Below, piece by piece: positions 19,827 through 30,011 of a DNA stretch of 64,000 bases. This DNA comes from an uncultured Actinomycetota bacterium (lineage in GTDB: Bacteria; Actinomycetota; Actinomycetes; JAHEKZ01). A program made the position numbers and the translations under genes. The notes beneath the pieces were generated by a model. It made no database searches. It saw only the letters and a program-made list of their open reading frames with translations, and had not been told where the DNA came from. The first letter of the stretch is position 1, and each line of letters starts with the position of its first letter. The stretch covers positions 448,001 to 512,000 of the forward strand of contig CAVQYR010000002.1 in the NCBI GenBank assembly GCA_963718235.1, given 5' to 3'.

Positions 19827-20354
19827 TCAGCCGAAGGTGCCCATCAGCGCCTGTCCCAGGGTCTCGACGAGGTCAGGGGCGTCGACTACGTCGTCGTCGT
19901 GGTCGTGACGCCGCCACCGCAGGGCTGCCGACGTCTCACCGGAGCGCAGCGCCGCCACGACCACCCGCAGCTCCTGGCGCGCGGGGTGGTGGAGGGCCGC
20001 CTGCTGGGCCATCAGCGGGTCGTCCGGTACGACGGCCCCTTCAGGGAGCATGAACATCTCCAGTGCGATCGCTGCGCCGTCGACGTCGTCGGGCCAGGCG
20101 ATGGCCGACAGCAGCTCGACCGGGTCGGTGTGCGCGGGCAGCCCGTCCTGCTCGACGGGGGTCAGCGAGCCAAGGGTGACATCGTCACTGGCGACCAGCT
20201 GTTCGGCCAGTGCCGGCTCTCTGCGCAGCAGGGCCGCGGTGTCGACCAGGGCGAACAGCCGAGTCGGTTGGTCCCACCCGGTCGACGCGACGAAGCGCTC
20301 GATCTCCCGGGTGGCGCTGTGCACGGCATCCGGTGCAGGTTGCGAAGCGGTCAC
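19827..20354 (-). CDS. PPA1309-family conserved actinobacterial protein
   Basis: EIERFVASTGWDQPTRLFALVDT, IAWPDDVDG, HPARQELR. Confidence 0.8.
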   Translation of the reverse strand: MTASQPAPDAVHSATREIERFVASTGWDQPTRLFALVDTAALLRREPALAEQLVASDDVTLGSLTPVEQDGLPAHTDPVELLSAIAWPDDVDGAAIALEMFMLPEGAVVPDDPLMAQQAALHHPARQELRVVVAALRSGETSAALRWRRHDHDDDVVDAPDLVETLGQALMGTFG

Positions 20355-20427
20355 GAGTTCATCCTGCCCGACGCCTGCGTGTCAGGGCCGAGGCGCAGGC
20401 GGCTCCACGTGCGGTTACGGTGGGGTG

Positions 20428-23394
20428 GTGACGTTCCAGACGCCGCCGCCTGCTGCCCCCGCCAGCCCGGCCCCGGCCCCTTCCCGCCGTAACCGTGCCC
20501 TGCTGCCGACGGTGGTGGTGGTCGGACTGCTGGTGGTCGGCTTCCTGCTGTTCGTCAGCTTCTACACCGACTGGTTGTGGTTCTCCGAGGTGGGGTTCAC
20601 CTCCGTCTTCACCAAGTCGCTGGTGACCCGGTTCGCGCTGTTCGCCGCGTTCTTCGCCGTCATGTTCGGCGGCGTCGTCCTCAACGGCTACCTTGCCTAC
20701 CGGTACCGGCCGCCCTTCCGCTCGATCTCCCTGGAGCAGCAGAGCCTCGACCGCTACCGGGTCGCCATCGACCCCTTCCGGAGGACCCTGCTGATCGCAC
20801 TCGGTGCGATGCTCGGCTTCTTCCTCGGGCTCTCGGCCGTCGCCGAGTGGCAGACCGTGTTGGCCTGGCTCAACCGGACCGCATTCGGCGTCGTCGACCC
20901 GCACTTCAAGTGGGACCTCTCGTTCTACACCTTCACCCTGCCCTGGCTGCGGTTCGTCCTCGGGGCGCTGATGTGGGTCGTGGCCATCTCAGCGGCCGTC
21001 GCGGCGGTGGTCCACTACCTGTACGGGGGGTTCCGGCTCCAGACGCCGGGCGAGAAGACCACCCCGGCGGCGCGCGCCCACCTGTCGATCCTGATCGGCC
21101 TGTTCGTGCTGCTCAAGGCCTTCGCGTACTTCCTCGACCGCTACGAGCTGCTGGTGTCCAACTTCAACCCAGACCTCACGGGTGCGGGGTACACCGAGAT
21201 CAACGCCGTCCTCCCGGCCAAGAACATCCTGATGGTCATTGCGGTCATCTGCTCCCTGCTGTTCTTCGCCAACGTGTTCCGCCGCACGTGGTCGCTGGCC
21301 GTGCTCGGCCTCGGCCTGCTCGTGGTCAGCGCCTTCGTCATCGGCGGCGTGTATCCGGCACTTGTGCAGCGCTTCACTGTGCAGCCCAGCGCCGTCCAGA
21401 AGCAGCAGCCGTACATCGAGGACAACATCGCGTCCACCCGGCAGGCGTACCAGCTCGACGGGATCGAGAAGGAGGCGTACTCGGGGATCATCGACGCCAC
21501 CAAGAAGAACTTCGCAGCGTCACGAGGCACCATCAACAACGTGCGACTGATGGACCCGTCCCTGCTTGCGCCTACCTACGACCAGCTGCAGCAGATCCGT
21601 GGGTACTACGGCTTCCAGGAACCGTTGGACATCGGACGGTACAACCTCACCGAGCAACAGCAGAGCGTCGTCGTCTCGGTGCGTGAGCTCGACCTCGACG
21701 GTGTTCCCGAGGCGCAGCGCAACTGGATCAACGAGCACCTCGTCTACACGCACGGGTACGGCATCGTGGCGGCACCCGACGACACGGTCACGGCAAACGG
21801 TGAACCCGACTTCATCGAGTACGACATCCCACCGCAGGGAGTGCTGGACGTCGAGGAACCACGGGTCTACTACGGCGAGCTCTCGCCGAGCTACTCCATC
21901 GTCGGTGCCGGCGAGGGTGACGGTGCACGTGAGCTCGACTACCCGGACGACACCACGGAGTCAGGGCAGCGCAACAACACCTATGACGGCGGGGGAGGGG
22001 TCCCGATCGGGTCCTTCTTCAACAAGCTGGTGTTCGCCACGAAGTACCAGGAGGGGAACATCCTGTTCTCCGACCTGGTGAACGAGAACTCCCGGATCCT
22101 CTACAACCGCGAGCCCCGTGAGCGGGTCCAGGCGGTTGCGCCGTGGCTGACCCTGGACGCCGACCCGTACCCGGCCGTGATCAACGGACGGATCACCTGG
22201 ATCATCGACGGCTACACGACCACCGACGGAATCCCCTACTCCGAGCGGGTGCCCTTCGGCGACGTCACCACCGACGCACTGACCGCACAGCAGAACCTGG
22301 GACAGCCCCTTCCGCGCGAGCAGATCAACTACATCCGCAACTCAGTGAAGGCGACCGTCGACGCCTACGACGGAACCGTGACCCTGTACGAGTGGGACGA
22401 GTCCGACCCGGTTCTGCAGACCTGGATGAAGGCCTTCCCAGGAAGTGTTCAGCCAAAGTCGGAGATCAGCCCAGACCTGTTGCAGCACCTGCGCTACCCC
22501 GAGGACCTGTTCAAGGTTCAGCGCGAGCTGTACGCCTCGTACCACGTCACCGACCCTTCGACGTTCTTCTCCGGCAACGACCTGTGGCAGGTGCCCGCCG
22601 ACCCGACGGTCGAGGCCGACGTCGCCCAGCCGCCGTACTACTTGACGATGCAGATGCCGGACCAGACCCAGCCGACGTTCTCCTTGACGACGCCACTTGC
22701 GCCGAACAAGCGCGAGACGCTGGCTGCCTTCATGGCTGTCAACAGTGATCCGCTCTCGGCGGACTACGGGACCATCAGGGTGCTCGAGCTGGGCCGCAAC
22801 ACTTCCCTGCCTGGACCGAGTCAGATGCAGAACCAGTTCACCTCCGACACCACGGTGGCTGAGCAGCTTCGTCTGCTCCAGGGAGGAAGCTCCCAGGTCG
22901 AGCTCGGCAACCTGCTGTCGCTCCCGGTGGCTGGAGGGTTCATCTACGTGGAGCCGGTCTACGTCCGGGCCACCTCGGGTGTGGCCCCCTACCCACTGCT
23001 GCGCAAGGTGCTGGTCTCCTTCGGCAGCGAGGTTGCCATGGAGGACACGTTCGAGGAGTCACTCGCGTCCTTGGTCGAGCAGTCGGGTGGGTCGTTCGAT
23101 CCAGGCGGTGGCAGCGGCGGTGGCAGCGGTGGCGGTGGTTCGGACCAGACCGCCCAGGAGCAGCTGGTCCAGGCACTGCGCGACGCCGAGCAGGCTTACG
23201 CCGACGGTCAAGCGGCGCTGCGTGCGGGCGACTTCACCGCCTACGGGGCGGCGCAGGACCGACTCGAGGCCGCCCTCGAGCGTGCGGACGCCGCAGCCCA
23301 GGAGCTGGGGGTCGCGCCACCGAGCGACACAGTGACGCCGGGCGAGTCACCGTCGCCGTCGGCGACCGCGACGACAGCGTCCGACATCGCCTGA
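20428..23394 (+). CDS. UPF0182 family membrane protein
   Basis: YTDWLWF, DPHF..DLSFY, HLVYTHGYG, NYIRNSVKATVDAYDG, LRYPEDLFKVQR; start at GTG 20428. Confidence 0.92.
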   Translation: MTFQTPPPAAPASPAPAPSRRNRALLPTVVVVGLLVVGFLLFVSFYTDWLWFSEVGFTSVFTKSLVTRFALFAAFFAVMFGGVVLNGYLAYRYRPPFRSISLEQQSLDRYRVAIDPFRRTLLIALGAMLGFFLGLSAVAEWQTVLAWLNRTAFGVVDPHFKWDLSFYTFTLPWLRFVLGALMWVVAISAAVAAVVHYLYGGFRLQTPGEKTTPAARAHLSILIGLFVLLKAFAYFLDRYELLVSNFNPDLTGAGYTEINAVLPAKNILMVIAVICSLLFFANVFRRTWSLAVLGLGLLVVSAFVIGGVYPALVQRFTVQPSAVQKQQPYIEDNIASTRQAYQLDGIEKEAYSGIIDATKKNFAASRGTINNVRLMDPSLLAPTYDQLQQIRGYYGFQEPLDIGRYNLTEQQQSVVVSVRELDLDGVPEAQRNWINEHLVYTHGYGIVAAPDDTVTANGEPDFIEYDIPPQGVLDVEEPRVYYGELSPSYSIVGAGEGDGARELDYPDDTTESGQRNNTYDGGGGVPIGSFFNKLVFATKYQEGNILFSDLVNENSRILYNREPRERVQAVAPWLTLDADPYPAVINGRITWIIDGYTTTDGIPYSERVPFGDVTTDALTAQQNLGQPLPREQINYIRNSVKATVDAYDGTVTLYEWDESDPVLQTWMKAFPGSVQPKSEISPDLLQHLRYPEDLFKVQRELYASYHVTDPSTFFSGNDLWQVPADPTVEADVAQPPYYLTMQMPDQTQPTFSLTTPLAPNKRETLAAFMAVNSDPLSADYGTIRVLELGRNTSLPGPSQMQNQFTSDTTVAEQLRLLQGGSSQVELGNLLSLPVAGGFIYVEPVYVRATSGVAPYPLLRKVLVSFGSEVAMEDTFEESLASLVEQSGGSFDPGGGSGGGSGGGGSDQTAQEQLVQALRDAEQAYADGQAALRAGDFTAYGAAQDRLEAALERADAAAQELGVAPPSDTVTPGESPSPSATATTASDIA

Positions 23395-23494
23395 CGGCGT
23401 TCGACCAGGCCCCGGCGTTGCTCGGCACGGGTACCGGTTTGGTCGTGGGGGCCCGCTTCGCCTAGAGTGTGCGCAGCACGTGACGACGTGTCGG

Positions 23495-23571
23495 CGCGGG
23501 GTGGAGCAGCTCGGTAGCTCGCTGGGCTCATAACCCAGAGGTCGCAGGTTCAAATCCTGCCCCCGCTACCA
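23495..23571 (+). tRNA. tRNA-fMet (CAT, initiator type)
   Basis: CGCGGGGTGGAGCAGCTCGGTAGCTCGCTGGGCTCATAACCCAGAGGTCGCAGGTTCAAATCCTGCCCCCGCTACCA; unpaired 1:72 and GGG/CCC anticodon stem. Confidence 0.97.
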
Positions 23572-23580
23572 ATGTTTTCG

Positions 23581-23619
23581 CAGGTCAGGGCCATGATCAT
23601 TGATCATGGCCCTGACCTG
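23581..23619. terminator. Perfect 19-bp inverted repeat after the tRNA
   Basis: CAGGTCAGGGCCATGATCA-T-TGATCATGGCCCTGACCTG; a related copy lies at about 26769-26802. Confidence 0.8.
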
Positions 23620-23621
23620 TG

Positions 23622-23652
23622 TGTAGGCAAAATGTCGGCAACCCTGCCGACA
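23622..23652. repeat. Integrase arm-type-like repeats (left end, element 1)
   Basis: TGTAGGCA 23622, TGTCGGCA 23633, inverted TGCCGACA 23645. Confidence 0.7.
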
Positions 23653-23793
23653 CGGGACACCGTCTCGGTTGGCGCAGAAGCCGGTTTGCTCGACGCTGGT
23701 GCACGTCCGGAGACACTCGTGGACGACACGTCTGCGCCGGCGGCGCGTTTGCGCCGGTTGACCTCTGGGTCGAAAACCCAGGAGTCGCCGAAG

Positions 23794-23856
23794 GTGGTCG
23801 CTCACGGCGTCAACCGTCGCGGTGACCGGCGCGACGACCGTCGCGATCGCCGTTAG
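23794..23856 (+). pseudogene. 3' fragment of a small Arg/Asp-rich protein gene (paralog of 51696-51833)
   Basis: VVAHGVNRRGDRRDDRRDRR* versus VVAHGHNRRADRRDDRGDRREDRRDR*; the N-terminal half is missing. Confidence 0.65.
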
Positions 23857-23874
23857 CACACCGACGGGAGTGGG

Positions 23875-26226
23875 CTACTGGCGGGCCAGATGTGCTCGTA
23901 GCTCGGCTTCGGGGTCGACGATCAGTTCCCCGCTGACGTCCACGACCACTTGCTCGAGGCGGCCGGTGAACTTGAACGGGCTCGGGTACGCCGGGGTCAC
24001 CGGGGACCCCGGGTTGTGGCCGCAGCTGACGCCGCCGGGGTTGAACATGAACGGCGTGGTGTAGGGGGCGTCGGCGCTGGCGACCAGTGAACCGTCGACG
24101 TACAGCTGGAGCCGTCCGGGGGCGCCCCGGCCGTGCGGCAGGTCGGCCTCGCCGGTGGGCTCGAACTCGAAGCGAAGCTCGTGGCGCCCGGCCGGGAGCG
24201 GGTCGGGCGAGGAGACGGTGAACCGCTCCCGCGCAACGTAGTTGTGGACGTAGTGCAGCCGGCCGTCCTTGACATACAGCGAGTAGCCACCGGCGGCCGT
24301 CCCCTGGCAGAACAGGACGCCCTCGGCACCCCCCTCCGGGATGTCCACGGTCGCGCTGATGCTGTGCGGACGGTTGTGCAGGCGCGGGGCAGCGAAGTTG
24401 GGGATCGACTGGGTGCCCGGCCGGTAGGTGTACTGGTTCCGCGGCAACGCGACATGCGGCTTCTCGACTGTCATCCGGGCCAGGCCGCTGCCATCGACTG
24501 GCATGACCTGGTACTTGCCGGCTTCGACGTACCAGGTCCCGATCAGCTCGATGAGCTTCTCGCGGTTCTCGGTGGCGAGGTTGTGGTTCTCCGCCGGGTC
24601 CTCGTCGATGTGGTATAGCTCCCAGCCGGTGGCGTCGAGCTTCGTCAACGTCTCGGCCGAGATGGGGTTGCCGAAGCCGGTGCCTGCCTCGGCGAACGAC
24701 GGGCCCGGCCACGGGCAGACGGCACGCCAGCCGTCCTTGTAAATGGCCCGGTGGCCCAGCATCTCGAAGTACTGGGTGTGGTGCCGGCTGGGCGCCGCCG
24801 GGTCGTCGAGCGCGTGGGCGAAGCTGACGCCCTGGATCGGCGACTGCGTGACGCCGCGGATCGCCGTCGGCGGCTCCACGCCGAGGAGGTCGAGGACTGT
24901 CGGCACCATGTCGATGATGTGGGTGTACTGCGAGCGCACCTCGCCACGCGCCTTGACACCGGCCGGCCAGGACACAATGAACGGGTCGCTGGAGCCGCCG
25001 CGGTAGGTCTCGCGCTTCCAGCGCCGGAACGGCGTGTTGCCGGCGAATGTCCAGCCCCACGGGTAGTGGTTGAAGTGCTCGGGGCCGCCGATCTTGTCGA
25101 TGACGGCCAGGCTCTCCTCGAGCGTCTCCTGGGCGTTGTTGAAGAACTGCGCCTCGTTGGTCGTTCCGCCCGGGCCGCCTTCGGCACTGGCACCGTTATC
25201 GCTGATAACCATGACGATCGTGTTGTCGAGGATGCCCTGCTCGCGCAGGAAAGCGAGCAGCCGGCCAAGGTGGTGGTCGGTATGGCTGAGGAACCCCGCG
25301 AACACCTCCATCATGCGCGCGTAGAGCCTCCGCGCCTCCGGCGACAGGGACTCCCACTCCGGCACGTCCGGGTCGTGGCGGGACAGCTCGGCGTCCGCCG
25401 CCAGGATGCCCAGCTCCTTCTGCCGGGCGAACACCTTCTCCCGGTAGGCATCCCAGCCGTCGTCGAACTGGCCGGCGTACCGGTCGGCCCACTCCTTGGG
25501 CACGTGGTGCGGGGCGTGGGTCGCCCCGAAGCACAGGTGCAGATAGAACGGCTTGGCGGGATCGATCTGGCGCAGGTCGGTGATGAACTCGATCGACTTG
25601 TCGACGAGGTCCTCGGTCAGGTGGTAACCCTCCTCCGGTGTCCGGGGCGGCTCGACCGGGTGGTTGTCATAGACCAGCTCGGGGTACCACTGGCTGGTGT
25701 CGCCGCCCAAGAACCCGTAGAAGCGCTGGAAGCCGCGTCCCAGCGGCCACCGGTCGTACGGGCCGGCGGCGGTCTCATAGACGCTCGGCGTCAGGTGCCA
25801 CTTGCCAACCATGTACGTGCCGTAGCCCTGCTCGACGAGCATCTCCGACAGCATGCCGTTCTCGAACGGCATGATGCCGTTGTAGCCCGGGTAGCCGGTG
25901 GCGAACTCGGTGATGCATGCCATGCCGTTGCTGTGATGGTTGCGCCCCGTCACGATGCACGACCGGCTCGGCGAGCACAGCGCCGTCGTGTGCATGTTCG
26001 AAAACCGTAGCCCGCCCGCCGCAAGCGCATCGAAGTTCGGCGTCTGGATCGGGCTCCCGTAGCACCCCAGTTGGCCGAAACCCGTGTCGTCCAACACCAC
26101 GAACAACACGTTCGGCGCGTCCGCCCGAGCTCGCGTTGGCGCCGGCCACGCCGCAGACGACTCCTCCGCCGTACGACCGATCACACCCGGAAACGGCCGA
26201 CCCGAGTCGTACTCAACGACCGCCAT
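23875..26226 (-). CDS. Arylsulfatase (Cys-type, long AtsA/B/D-like)
   Basis: PNVLFVVLDDTG, LCSPSRSCIVTGR (CxPxR), GKWH, SDNGAS; SD GGAGG before ATG 26226. Confidence 0.92.
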   Translation of the reverse strand: MAVVEYDSGRPFPGVIGRTAEESSAAWPAPTRARADAPNVLFVVLDDTGFGQLGCYGSPIQTPNFDALAAGGLRFSNMHTTALCSPSRSCIVTGRNHHSNGMACITEFATGYPGYNGIMPFENGMLSEMLVEQGYGTYMVGKWHLTPSVYETAAGPYDRWPLGRGFQRFYGFLGGDTSQWYPELVYDNHPVEPPRTPEEGYHLTEDLVDKSIEFITDLRQIDPAKPFYLHLCFGATHAPHHVPKEWADRYAGQFDDGWDAYREKVFARQKELGILAADAELSRHDPDVPEWESLSPEARRLYARMMEVFAGFLSHTDHHLGRLLAFLREQGILDNTIVMVISDNGASAEGGPGGTTNEAQFFNNAQETLEESLAVIDKIGGPEHFNHYPWGWTFAGNTPFRRWKRETYRGGSSDPFIVSWPAGVKARGEVRSQYTHIIDMVPTVLDLLGVEPPTAIRGVTQSPIQGVSFAHALDDPAAPSRHHTQYFEMLGHRAIYKDGWRAVCPWPGPSFAEAGTGFGNPISAETLTKLDATGWELYHIDEDPAENHNLATENREKLIELIGTWYVEAGKYQVMPVDGSGLARMTVEKPHVALPRNQYTYRPGTQSIPNFAAPRLHNRPHSISATVDIPEGGAEGVLFCQGTAAGGYSLYVKDGRLHYVHNYVARERFTVSSPDPLPAGRHELRFEFEPTGEADLPHGRGAPGRLQLYVDGSLVASADAPYTTPFMFNPGGVSCGHNPGSPVTPAYPSPFKFTGRLEQVVVDVSGELIVDPEAELRAHLARQ

Positions 26227-26564
26227 CGCAAGCCTCCGCATCCGCTGGTCAACAGGGCGGTCAACCCCGACTCGAACTCGACCACGGACCCAGTCGCACG
26301 GTCAAGGGGCCCAGGTCCCCCCGAGTGCGAAGCCCCGATGGCACGCTGACCGTCAAGACCGCTCTGGCAGTTCCGACCCTGAGGCGGGCGGCTCACGACC
26401 CACGCCGTCGCACACCTGATTACGCCTCTCGTGATGGCAAGTCGATCGCCGGGGCCCGCGACTCCGCGTCGACGGGCTTCGTATGCGGGACGTCCGCCGG
26501 CGTCGGAGGCGCTCTGTCGAAGGCCGCGTCGAGCGAAGAAGTCAGCCGGGAGGCAGGTTCGCCA

Positions 26565-26583
26565 TGTCGGCAGAATGTCGGCA
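26565..26583. repeat. Integrase arm-type-like direct repeats (right end, element 1)
   Basis: TGTCGGCA-GAA-TGTCGGCA at 26565 and 26576, with the same 11-nt period as the left end. Confidence 0.7.
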
Positions 26584-26713
26584 ACACATGCGCGGACGTG
26601 GCTGGATGCCAGGCGACGCCGACAGGCGTGGGTGGGGCTGTCACCTGCGACGACGGTCCTTCCACGACCGTCCCCGAGCGTCCAGGGCTGCTCGTTGGCC
26701 CGGGTGCTTCTGC

Positions 26714-26760
26714 GGCTCATAACCCAGAGGTCGCAGGTTCAAATCCTGCCCCCGCTACCA
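26714..26760 (+). repeat. att core: duplicated 3' 47 nt of tRNA-fMet
   Basis: GGCTCATAACCCAGAGGTCGCAGGTTCAAATCCTGCCCCCGCTACCA, identical to 23525-23571. Confidence 0.95.
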
Positions 26761-26975
26761 CGTTTACGCAGGTCAGGGCCATGATCAGTGATCATGGCCC
26801 TGTATCAGTGTTGGCAGAATGTCGGCAAGCCTGCCGACACGGGGACCGCGCCGACACCGGGTTGACGCCGGTCCGCTCGACGCTGATGGACGTGCGGGGA
26901 CGCTCGTGGACGTCCTGTTTGCTCCGGCGGGCTGCAAGGCCGTTTGACCTCTGGGTCGCTACCCCACGGATCTCC
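26761..26975 (+). mobile_element. Left arm of a second, related tRNA-integrated element
   Basis: Collinear diverged copy of 23572-~23790: hairpin, TGTTGGCA/TGTCGGCA/TGCCGACA at 26809-26839, GCTCGACGCTG, CTCGTGGACG, TTGACCTCTGGGTCG. Confidence 0.75.
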
Positions 26976-27300
26976 GAACCACCCCTGACCCGTGCGGTCC
27001 CTGCGTCATGTCGGTACGTCACGCGCGCCACCATGCTCAGTAGGGCGACGCGGCCACTGCGGAACAACCGAGAGATAAGGTGAACGTGGTGCGCCGGGAA
27101 GTCTGGTCGGCAGTCATGTCGTCGACCCCTAGGGGCCCTGTGTTGACTCGTTCCGCTTTGACTGGCTCGCGACGAGAAGCGCGACGCCGGGCACGCCGCC
27201 TCTCGAACCTCGCGGTTCGTGTCCGTACCCGGTCGTTTGAGGACGCGACTCGGACGGGTCGCACCTCCTGCACCGGCACGAGCGCGACACAGGTCACCTG

Positions 27301-30011
27301 ATGGCCACCCACGTGGGCGCCAGAGCAACCGCTCATCATGTCCTGGCTGGGCATGAGGTCGTGCTGCTGTTGGAGACTGATCCGCATCGAGGGTTGACGT
27401 CGGCAGAGGCAGCCGAGCGGCTAGACCGCTTCGGGCCGAACGTGCTGCCGCGCACGGGGACGGCTGGGCCGTTGCGGCGGTTCCTTCGCCAGTTCCAGCA
27501 CCCGCTGATCTACGTCCTGATCGCTGCGGGCGCGATCACCTTGGCGTTGGGCGAGGTGGTGGACTCCGTCGTCATCTTCGGCGTGGTGTTGATCAACGCG
27601 GTCATCGGCTTCATTCAGGAGTCCAAGGCCGAGGCGGCGCTTGATGCGTTGCGCGCGATGGTGCGGACCCAGGCTCGGGTGGTGCGCGACGGGCGCGCCC
27701 GCACGGTTGCGTCCGACGAGCTGGTGCCCGGCGATCTGGTCAGGGTCGAGGCCGGTGACAAGGTCCCCGCAGACCTGCGGCTACTTGGGCATGCCGAGCT
27801 GCAGGTCGACGAGTCGGCGCTGACCGGGGAGTCGGTCCCGGTGGTCAAGGACGAAGTGGCGCTCCCTCCGGACACCGCGGTCGCCGACCGCCGGAACATG
27901 CTCTACTCGGGCACGTTGGTCACCCACGGCACCGCGGTCGGCGATCGTGGTCGCGACGGGCGCGCAGACCGAGCTGGGTGAGATCCACCGCTTGGTCGGC
28001 GCCGCCGACGTGCTGGCCACTCCTCTGACCCGCAAGCTGACGTGGTTCAGCAAGGTGCTGACTGTGGTCATTCTCGGTCTGGCGGCGGTGACCTTCCTCG
28101 TCGGTATGCTCCGCGGGGAGAAGCCAGCCGAGATGTTCACCGCGGCGGTCGCACTGGCGGTTGGTGCGATCCCTGAGGGATTGCCGGCGGCGGTGACCAT
28201 CACGTTGGCCATCGGTGTCAGCCGGATGGCCCGGCAGCGGGCGGTGATCCGGCGGCTGCCCGCGGTGGAAACCCTCGGCAGCACCACCGTCATCTGCACC
28301 GACAAGACCGGAACGTTGACTGAGAACCAGATGACCGTCCGCCAGGTGTGGACGCCAGGCGGTGGCTTCCAGTTGAGCGGGTCCGGCTACGCCCCGGACG
28401 GTCGGCTGGTCGACGACGCTGGGCTGGTTGGTGACACCTCGGTCGAGGGGGCGCTGCGGTGGAGCCTCCTGGCCGGGGCCCTGTGCAACGATGCGCGGCT
28501 GTCCGAGACAAGAGGGCCTGTGGCAGGTGGTGGGTGACCCCACGGAAGGTGCCTTGTTGGTTGCGGCCGCCAAGTCGGGCCTGGACCTGGACGAGGGGCG
28601 CGGCGCGCTGCCCCGGATCTCGACCGTTCCGTTCAGCTCCGAGCGGCAGTTCATGGCGACCCTGCACCGCGACCGCCGCATCGGGGAGCGCGTGGTGCTG
28701 GCCAAGGGCGCCACGGAGCGCATCGTGGACTTGTGCGGCGCCCAGATGGACGCCGTGGGCTCGCGGCAGCCGCTGGACCGCGACCGCGTCCTGTCTGCGG
28801 CCGAGACGATGGCCGCCGGCGGACTCCGGGTGCTCGCCACCGCCCAAGGGCACCTCGAGGACGCCGACGAGCTCGGCGAGGACCAGCTGCCCGGGGCCCT
28901 CGTCCTCACTGGCCTGCAAGGCATGCTCGACCCGCCCCGCGCGGCCGCCATCGCGGCCGTGGCCGCCTGCCACGCGGCCGGCATCGAGGTGAAGATGATC
29001 ACCGGTGACCACGCTGGCACCGCCAGCGCAATCGCCGAGCAGGTCGGTGTGATCGGCGCTGAACACGAAGGCAAGGTCGTGCTCGGGACGGAGCTCAACC
29101 AGCTCGACGATGCGGCCTACACGGGAACGGTCGAGCGCGCCGCGGTGTTCGCCCGGGTTAGCCCGGAGCAGAAATTGCGCCTGGTCGAAGCGCTGCAAGG
29201 GCTTGGCCACGTGGTCGCGATGACCGGAGACGGCGTCAACGACGCCCCCGCGCTCCGCCAGGCCGACATCGGAATCGCCATGGGCCAAGCCGGGACGGAG
29301 GTGGCGAAGGAAGCAGCCGACATGGTCCTCACCGACGACGACTTCGCCACCATCGAGGGCGCCATCGAAGAGGGCCGCGGAGTCTTCGACAACCTCACCA
29401 AGTTCATCGTCTGGACCCTGCCGACCAACATGGGTGAGGGACTGGTCATCCTGGTCGCGATCCTGCTCGGGACCGCGCTGCCGATCTCACCGGTGCAGAT
29501 CCTGTGGATCAACATGACCACCGCGGTGGCACTCGGCCTGATGCTCGCGTTCGAACCGAAGGAACCAGGCATCATGACCCGACCGCCCCGCGACCCGCGA
29601 CGCCCCCTGCTCACCGGTGCGCTCATCACTCGGATCCTGCTGGTCTCCGCGCTGCTGGTCGGCGGGGCGTGGTGGCTGTTCGAATGGGAGCGCGCCAACG
29701 GCGCCTCGTTGGCCGAGGCGCAGACTGTCGCGGTCAACCTGTTCGTCACGGTTGAGGCGTTCTACCTGTTCAGCTGTCGCTCGCTCACAAGGGCGGTCTG
29801 GCGCATCGGATTCTTCAGCAACCGCTGGCTGCTCGGCGGTGTCGCTCTCCAAGCGATCGGGCAGCTCGCCCTCACATACCTGCCCGCCATGAACGGGCTG
29901 TTCAGCACCGCGCCGATCCCACCCGAGGCGTGGCTGCGGATCCTCGCGGTCGCGCTCGCCGCATCGGTTGTCGTCGCGGTCGACAAGCGGATTCGCCGTG
30001 CGGTTCTGTGA
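27301..30011 (+). CDS. Cation-transporting P-type ATPase (CtpF-like), split by two apparent +1 frameshifts (~27943, ~28511)
   Basis: Three overlapping ORFs carry DESALTGES, PEGLP, DKTGTLT, MITGDH and TGDGVND in order; the N-terminus AHHVLAGHEVVLLL resembles mycobacterial CtpF. Confidence 0.88.

Follow-up and report, generated by a model that had tools for sequence, protein, structure and literature searches.

The 64,000-nt window analysed here (G000:C2:448001-512000) belongs to the genome G000 of an uncultured actinobacterium and carries, directly at a tRNA-fMet gene, a 3,189-bp unit with one gene, which encodes a sulfatase. The unit is bounded by two copies of a 47-bp core and can be counted as 23525-26713 or equally as 23572-26760. 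We consider it probable that this unit is a non-autonomous integrative cassette resembling the cis-mobilizable elements (CIMEs), made of the attachment site (attP) of a tyrosine integrase and one cargo gene, for which the integrase is supplied from elsewhere. This reading is based on the anatomy of the unit, on conserved arms with varied cargo in relatives, on insertions compared with empty sites, on a high-identity cassette in a distant genome and on integrases of one family that adjoin matching repeats. The source genome has 3.17 Mb and 70% G+C, is assembled in 2 contigs and is 95% complete.

A one-gene unit between two copies of a tRNA 3' end

The core (GGCTCATAACC...GCTACCA) begins in the 5' strand of the anticodon stem of the tRNA and is 47/47 identical to the tRNA 3' end. 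From the C1:U72 mismatch and the GGG/CCC in the anticodon stem this tRNA-Met(CAT) is read as initiator type, and the order of a UPF0182 gene followed by tRNA-fMet is conserved among relatives. Both copies of the core are exact, no match was obtained in 100 shuffles, and a third copy was not found in the 3.17-Mb genome with up to 6 mismatches allowed. The coordinates of all features are given in Table 1.

Homology between the two ends is not restricted to the core. It starts sharply at base 1 of the 47-mer and runs about 220 bp beyond both cores (23572-~23793 versus 26761-~26980), at lower identity than in the core; the aligned 386-nt stretches 23495-23880 and 26684-27069 have a mean column identity of 83%. 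An exact core with diverged flanks is unlike a segmental duplication and indicates two related elements integrated in tandem. Since the homology continues past the second core, the DNA after 26760 belongs to a further, older unit as its left arm.

A tandem duplication or a mis-join by the assembler at the repeated tRNA end is hardly credible as the source of this arrangement. The assembly consists of two contigs, and repeated cores do break the assemblies of relatives, as in G087, where the arms of the element lie on different contigs. However, many families and independent assemblies show this architecture too, the two copies diverge after the core, and the cassette is found with 94.9% identity in a different context in the genome G071.

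An earlier note on this DNA had described an exact 47-bp duplication of the tRNA 3' end starting in the anticodon arm, TGTCGGCA repeats with an 11-nt period at both ends (23622-23652 and 26565-26583), one intact gene and the lack of an integrase in the element and in the window. All four observations hold: the core copies are exact, the repeat doublet occurs three times in the genome and its reversed control not at all, the gene is an open frame of 788 aa, and all tyrosine recombinase matches lie elsewhere. The homology beyond the cores was absent from that note.

Architecture of the attachment site arms

The left arm was delimited by alignment of 12 copies from 8 genomes, in which conservation stops sharply after a palindromic core-like site, here called psi. 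The half-sites of psi, GACCTCTGGG and CCCAGGAGTC with seven nucleotides between them, are similar to the tRNA's own CCCAGAGGTC. Of the type-1 left arms, 12 of 12 have the site, at 185-190 nt past the core end; it was not seen in the three integrase-bearing relatives with a visible left end. Close to the core, 10 nt past the tRNA end, the arm contains a perfect 39-nt palindrome; the 59-nt stretch that contains it (23572-23630) folds with -42.3 kcal/mol (z -9.5), and the palindrome is probably a replacement terminator for the tRNA. The hairpin is followed by the repeats, which are presumed to be arm-type integrase sites, and the arm also has two GTGGACG-like blocks. Left arms of at least four repeat types were found (TGTCGGCA, TGTAGGCA, GACCGCAG and TGTCAGCA), each with the hairpin first; in the other arm types hairpins of different sequence stand at the same place.

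The right arm opens with two exact copies of TGTCGGCA and is conserved in 9 copies from 7 genomes, where the similarity does not extend past the repeat. The arm includes a TGTCACCTGCGA block, whose counterpart in integrase-bearing relatives is a CTCTGACCTGCG block. The geometry is fixed in all copies found, with a distance of 132-134 nt from the end of the right-arm repeat to the core and of 57-60 nt from the core to the start of the left-arm repeat. Right arm, core and left arm together make up an attP of about 410 bp. On its own the 8-mer TGTCGGCA is weakly enriched in the window (7 copies against 3.55 expected; 5 of 100 shuffles reach 7). The doublet with 11-nt period (TGTNGGCANNNTGTCGGCA) occurs three times in the genome, always at this locus, and its reversed control is not found.

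Table 1. Features of the sulfatase cassette and its surroundings in the window, with identity to the corresponding parts of G071
Feature	Position	Strand	Evidence and remarks	Identity to G071
UPF0182 family gene	20050..23394	+	PF03699, E 6e-294; chromosomal neighbour upstream of tRNA, flank outside the element	
tRNA-Met(CAT)	23495..23571	+	ARAGORN; Rfam tRNA, 63.6 bits; 3' 47 nt form the core of the left attachment site (attL)	
Core copy 1 (attL core)	23525..23571	+	exact 47-mer, 2 copies in genome	47/47
Left arm of sulfatase cassette	23572..23790 (~215 bp)	+	alignment of 12 copies, 8 genomes	87.3%
Perfect palindrome, 39 nt	23581..23619	+	repeat search; 10 nt past tRNA end	
Left-arm repeats	23622..23652	+	TGTAGGCA 23622-23629, TGTCGGCA 23633-23640 (11-nt period), inverted TGCCGACA 23645-23652	
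psi, GACCTCTGGG-N7-CCCAGGAGTC	23760..23786	.	repeat search; palindromic core-like site at inner end of left arm	
Sulfatase gene (cargo), 788 aa	23875..26241	-	PF00884, E 1e-67, 228.9 bits (cut-off 25); Cys-type CSPSR motif	98.1%; 44 differences, 36 at third codon positions
Non-coding stretch upstream of sulfatase gene	26242..26562	-		95.0%
Right arm	26563..26713 (~150 bp)	+	opens with two exact TGTCGGCA; conserved in 9 copies, 7 genomes	76.8%
Right-arm TGTCGGCA repeats	26565-26572 and 26576-26583	+	exact, 11-nt period	
Core copy 2	26714..26760	+	core of the right attachment site (attR) for the sulfatase cassette; at the same time attL core for the older unit	47/47
Left arm of older unit	26761..26980	+	decayed hairpin; TGTTGGCA/TGTCGGCA 26809-26827; inverted copy 26832-26839; decayed psi 26946	
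P-type cation ATPase, three overlapping frames	27301..30011	+	Pfam matches in the open reading frames 27301-27981, 27947-28537 and 28428-30011	

The same arms with other cargo in relatives

The order of G000 comprises 20 genomes of one family, and 401 genomes sampled evenly across the class were searched with right arm, core and left arm as one query. Matches at E <= 1e-20 were obtained in 50 of these genomes; those that include the right arm come from 12 genomes in 5 families. In G005 the tRNA is followed by the left arm (81% identical), about 3.8 kb of cargo, the right arm (81% over 264 nt) and a core. This cargo encodes ArsR, an ArsP-type permease, two LMWPc proteins and a thioredoxin-like protein, and the arsenic cassette also shares with G000 the part 26452-26562, about 110 nt inside the right arm. 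Between the same arms G071 and G100 carry a metallo-beta-lactamase (MBL)-fold hydrolase gene and G080 a 7.8-kb set rich in TetR genes. Toxin-antitoxin pairs and regulators were also among the cargo seen at these loci.

Units in relatives often form arrays of two to five. G003 has the tRNA and four further cores inside 11 kb, and G013 has two right arms with a core after each. Within the genus g4 occupied and empty sites could be compared: G010 has a DEAD-box helicase gene next after the tRNA, and the two are separated by a unit of 2 kb or 4.4 kb plus a core in G004 and G012. The flank past the attR core of G005 is similar to the flank after the tRNA at the empty site of G010. At the loci L031 and L032 (G014, G004) the tRNA is followed by an ordinary-looking terminator as at the empty site of G008, with a second core 2-2.4 kb downstream; the origin of these units is not accounted for by a simple integration model.

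The sulfatase cassette in a genome of another family

The same sulfatase cassette was found in G071, a genome of family f9. The order there is tRNA, left arm, MBL-fold gene, right arm, core, left arm, sulfatase gene, right arm, core and a GACCGCAG-type left arm; the sulfatase cassette is thus second in the array of G071 and first in that of G000. The window positions 23525-26797 match G071 with 94.9% identity over 3,276 bp, and the match starts at base 1 of the core, left of which the two loci are unrelated. The sulfatase proteins are identical at 782 of 789 positions; the UPF0182 genes of the two genomes are 68.4% identical.

Identity is not even along the cassette (Table 1). It rises at psi and falls about 10 nt past the right-arm repeat to 0.60-0.83 in 30-nt windows, so that the recently shared segment extends from psi to the repeat and the core-adjacent parts have another history. 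Gene conversion between the arms of neighbouring units and recombination at psi are two possible sources of this mosaic.

The mosaic also speaks for a quite unlikely alternative, namely that DNA uptake and RecA exchange the cassettes, with the 47-bp cores and the 75-90% similar arms as portable homology and no recombinase needed today. The jump of identity at psi and its drop in the core-nearest 120 nt of the right arm, next to identical cores, fit such an exchange, and so do the few recombinases of the relatives: G071 has only two Xer-like recombinases and one broken tyrosine recombinase, and G005 has two Xer-like ones and two others away from the locus. However, 47 exact base pairs are a very short homology, and the strict spacing of the repeats, their co-variation with the integrases described below and the conservation of arms around free cargo are left unexplained.

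Integrases adjoin matching repeats in autonomous relatives

No tyrosine recombinase is encoded in the window, as all 6 PF00589 matches of the genome lie elsewhere, and none of the 49 open reading frames of the window that were scanned has a recombinase or transposase domain. The sole serine-recombinase fragment of G000 is on the other contig. A tRNA-fMet-type integrase was found in none of G000, G005 and G071, and in their cassettes no remnant of an integrase or excisionase gene was detected (all tblastn E > 0.05). The gene of G000 that comes closest to the integrase of G087, which is described below, has 28.5% identity to it, lies on the other contig and contains an in-frame TAG.

Relatives with an integrase at the same tRNA do exist. 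In G255 the tRNA and a second core enclose an element of 17 kb. It encodes a TrwC relaxase and a tyrosine integrase of 462 aa, the integrase gene has its start towards the core, and TGTCACC repeats with an 11-nt period are present in both arms. Homologues of this integrase are present in 50 of the 401 class genomes at E <= 1e-25, a tally that includes G025, G060 and G270, which are flagged as unpublished; the specific claims rest on other genomes. Of 20 loci examined around a clade of integrases with 36-41% identity, 12 (in 11 genomes) have the order integrase start, repeat doublet, about 130 nt and core. Each of these 12 loci has its own repeat sequence with 11-nt period beside the tRNA-fMet core. 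The integrases of G080 that resemble the one of G255 were rejected as cognate enzymes, as they are located at tRNA-Gly and tRNA-Ala.

The repeat of the sulfatase cassette is found beside the integrase of G087, where TGTCGGCA occurs in the right arm and also in the left arm, after the tRNA on another contig. At the integrase loci of G093 and G043 the motifs are TGTAGGCA and GACCGCAG, respectively, and both occur in integrase-less units elsewhere. A complete 10-kb island in G070 consists of the tRNA, a hairpin, TGTACGC-type repeats, an HTH_17 excisionase gene, cargo, the integrase gene, TGTACGC repeats and the core.

Two of these loci have further contents. The island after the tRNA of G087 (L237, G087:C11, 793-7752) encodes a SNF2-type helicase, a NOV_C protein, a methyltransferase and DprA, a gene set that looks like a defence type. 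On contig G043:C30 (L053, L098, L099) at least four tRNA-fMet cores are spread over 45 kb, and the array mixes two near-identical GACCGCAG-type integrases with integrase-less TGTCAACA-type units.

Because islands of the same design with an integrase exist, the cassette could be an immobile, dead remnant of such a larger island, and its likeness to G071 the result of a larger DNA transfer. We regard this plain decay as unlikely. It is true that CIMEs are defined as arising in this way in a passage of PMC5704250, that a truncated 140-aa integrase fragment beside the tRNA of G020 represents decay in progress, and that the unit after 26760 in G000 is itself without a right end. Independent deletions would be expected to produce ragged ends and fragments of integrase or excisionase genes, whereas the 12 left arms share one end point, the 9 right arms all open with the repeat, and no such remnants were detected in the cassettes of G000, G005 and G071. 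The match between G000 and G071 begins at the core and not in the flanks. Furthermore, G000 and G005 share the arms and the adjoining ~110 nt around unrelated cargo, which indicates that the cargo was changed in a scaffold that was already without an integrase.

Cargo, inner non-coding DNA and the older unit

The cargo sulfatase has a C-terminal extension of about 330 aa and scores below every NCBIfam equivalog cut-off. Although its site is of the Cys type, no match to the FGE-sulfatase family PF03781 was found in the 95% complete genome. PF00884 has 6 matches in G000, three of them in long (~800-aa) open frames. Outside the window, at G000:C1:1845381-1851563, a paralogous sulfatase of ~815 aa is encoded about 3 kb away from a tyrosine integrase gene that contains an in-frame TAG; this locus is another case of a sulfatase paired with a broken integrase.

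The non-coding stretch 26242-26562 contains no integrase remnant (all tblastn E > 0.05), and the ~110 nt inside the right arm have no integrase-like translation. A 97-aa open reading frame across the left arm (23566-23859, minus strand) was considered as an excisionase gene and rejected, since by eye it has no likeness to HTH_17 excisionases. A tblastn search with two HTH_17 excisionases gave nothing significant in 23400-27300.

As the genome has no third core, the right end of the older unit after 26760 has been lost. The P-type ATPase that follows, and which is possibly the cargo of this unit, is either a pseudogene with two frameshifts or split by indel errors of the assembly, as judged from its frames. 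This region has no DNA homologue among the other loci compared. A point downstream at which synteny resumes was sought; the genes that form the flank in G005, G012 and G071 are located in other parts of the G000 genome.

Searches beyond the class and sequencing data

The arm pattern had 0 matches in viral contigs. When right arm, core and left arm were compared with phage and plasmid collections, the tRNA part alone matched, and the Rfam scan of the locus gave the tRNA and noise. Among 185,579 species genomes the exact right-arm repeat pattern was found at 16 loci, seven of them actinobacterial; no integrase was seen beside these seven, and the non-actinobacterial loci adjoin unrelated genes. 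In a Sporosarcina record (L075, 929-971) four copies of TGTCGGCA follow each other at an 11-nt period, and no recombinase was found in the flanking 2 kb.

A metagenome scan with a looser repeat pattern gave at least 80 loci with DNA. Among the matches listed, one right arm and one left arm have a tRNA-fMet context and the others belong to other elements of 32-68% GC. The doublet TGTCGGCA-AAA/AAT-TGTCGGCA (loci L116-L195) is frequent in contigs that range from 32 to 68% G+C, and 24 of the 80 loci listed have a tyrosine integrase homologue. At loci that were checked (e.g., L116, L118, L120, L132) the integrase gene, on the same strand as the doublet, ends some 60-100 nt ahead of it; about two dozen further listed loci have TGCTAAACAGTT before the doublet and no integrase match. 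The 8-mer TGTCGGCA may be a widespread arm site.

Parts of the stretch are contained in 20 of 24 sequencing runs, each with at most 34% of its words. The contigs of run X1 are pieces between 23874 and 26678, without depth in the bins before 23766 or after 26824, and those of run X2 have depth only in the tRNA bin, in 23927-26824 and from 27308 onward.

Proposed mechanism and its weighing

For the non-autonomous cassette that we favour, the following sequence of events is proposed. The repeats would be arm-type sites on which an integrase of the type described above acts, and the cassette would be excised as a circle. This circle would recombine via its core with the 3' end of tRNA-fMet or with any core already present in the array. 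The inserted cassette would then provide the tRNA 3' end together with a new terminator hairpin, and the displaced old tRNA 3' end would become the downstream core. The integrase, probably together with an HTH_17 excisionase, would come from a related island with the same TGTCGGCA arm repeats, which would act either in trans or in cis by joint excision with the cassette (accretion-mobilisation). Since G000 is without such an integrase, the cassette would now be stranded there.

Several observations weigh against this reading. G087 shares with the cassette arms only the 8-mer and its spacing and is without psi, and none of the genomes examined contains a TGTCGGCA integrase together with an integrase-less TGTCGGCA cassette. 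The assignment of a G087-type integrase to the cassette arms is suggested by its position and by the co-variation of repeats. As G000 is 95% complete, an integrase may also lie on unassembled DNA. The arms are less alike than the cargo (87.3% and 76.8% versus 98.1%), which pure core-to-core site-specific transfer would not predict; by this mismatch some homologous recombination or another exchange appears to be involved. Finally, no excised circle, empty site or joint was found in the X1 and X2 contigs, whose partial coverage gives no verdict on excision and no claim on habitat, and 0 reads of two raw-read runs aligned.

On the other side stands a count of the units: of 17 core-to-core units at the loci examined, two have an integrase (those of 10 and 17 kb), whereas 0 of the 11 units of up to 5 kb have one, in a sample that is not random because loci were picked by similarity to the arms or the integrase. 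Two further observations in favour had been named in the earlier note as worth looking for. The same arms enclose different cargo in G005, G071, G100 and G080, and a tyrosine integrase lies next to TGTCGGCA repeats in G087, with its start beside the repeats and the tRNA-fMet core. The picture that would have spoken against the note, one large decaying island with neither cargo variation nor a cognate integrase, was not found. Its interpretation as a non-autonomous element is thus supported by the conserved arms and the integrase beside matching repeats; between mobilisation in trans and an island reduced to its ends, which it offered as alternatives, the data do not separate.

A wider idea can be put forward tentatively. 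The units could be a cassette system in their own right, parallel to integrons and built on lambda-type attachment sites, with arrays at tRNA-fMet across the actinobacterial class that are shuffled between lineages by the integrases of transient islands and exchange their cargo at psi. If units are kept and exchanged across families, the initiator-tRNA locus would be a shared slot for adaptive genes of small-genome environmental Actinobacteria, with mobility outsourced. The CIME idea would then widen from occasional decayed integrative and conjugative elements (ICEs) to a self-sustaining class of non-autonomous elements. Such a system would also offer a natural case for studying the arm-site specificity of tyrosine integrases, with many repeat variants, one core and one geometry; the small attP/integrase pairs are possible parts for site-specific integration tools, and psi and the mosaic arms point to a cargo-exchange step. 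Literature searches for tRNA-fMet integrases or attachment sites and for non-autonomous elements acted on in trans gave no description of the system in the sources covered, which do not include subscription journals.

Comparison with known systems

The lambda-type attP of tyrosine integrases that target tRNA genes consists of a core and arm-type sites, and one class of these enzymes has its crossover near the anticodon loop. The unit described here has a core that is the 3' part of the tRNA from the anticodon stem on, direct repeats in both arms at fixed distances and, in its autonomous relatives, an integrase and an HTH_17 excisionase; the cassette itself has neither gene. Autonomous islands, ICEs and integrative and mobilisable elements (IMEs) encode their own integrase, which the cassette does not.

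Integron cassettes consist of one or a few genes and an attC site and are arrayed at one locus beside intI and attI, with the recombinase outside the cassette. The units share with them the small number of genes with a recombination site, the arrays at one locus and the recombinase outside the cassette. However, the present array lies beside a UPF0182 gene and a tRNA and not beside intI or attI, the window has no integrase, and the site found, in place of an attC, is a two-armed attP of ~410 bp with a tRNA gene as target.

In the tycheposons of Prochlorococcus repeated integrations at a tRNA push older units outward, with partial tRNAs and degraded elements left behind, and the genes carried are niche-related; they are defined by their own tyrosine recombinase and mostly also have a replication module (bioRxiv 10.1101/2020.12.28.424599). 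The array of units with partial tRNAs at one tRNA is alike, whereas the cassette has no recombinase or replication module and comes from another host group.

Of the kinds described so far, a CIME with tandem accretion is the closest, as known from ICEs and IMEs of streptococci. According to PMC5704250, CIMEs are flanked by attL and attR, lack integration and transfer genes, stand in tandem at the 3' end of the target gene and are expected to be moved by an integrase-bearing neighbour. The cassette likewise has exact 47-bp cores with conserved attL and attR arms, has the sulfatase as its only gene and no similarity to integrases or excisionases, and is part of a tandem series of units that adjoins its target gene at the 3' end. 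As to an origin by decay, autonomous relatives exist, and the cassette has no remnants and arm ends that are identical across differing cargo. It differs in that many very small units (1.7-5 kb, often with one gene) occur in several actinobacterial families, with sharply conserved arm ends around replaceable cargo and the additional psi, and in that descent of these units from an ICE is only a possibility. What goes beyond the CIME picture is the number and spread of the tiny units, the identical inner arm ends around unrelated cargo, including the ~110 nt shared by G000 and G005, and psi.

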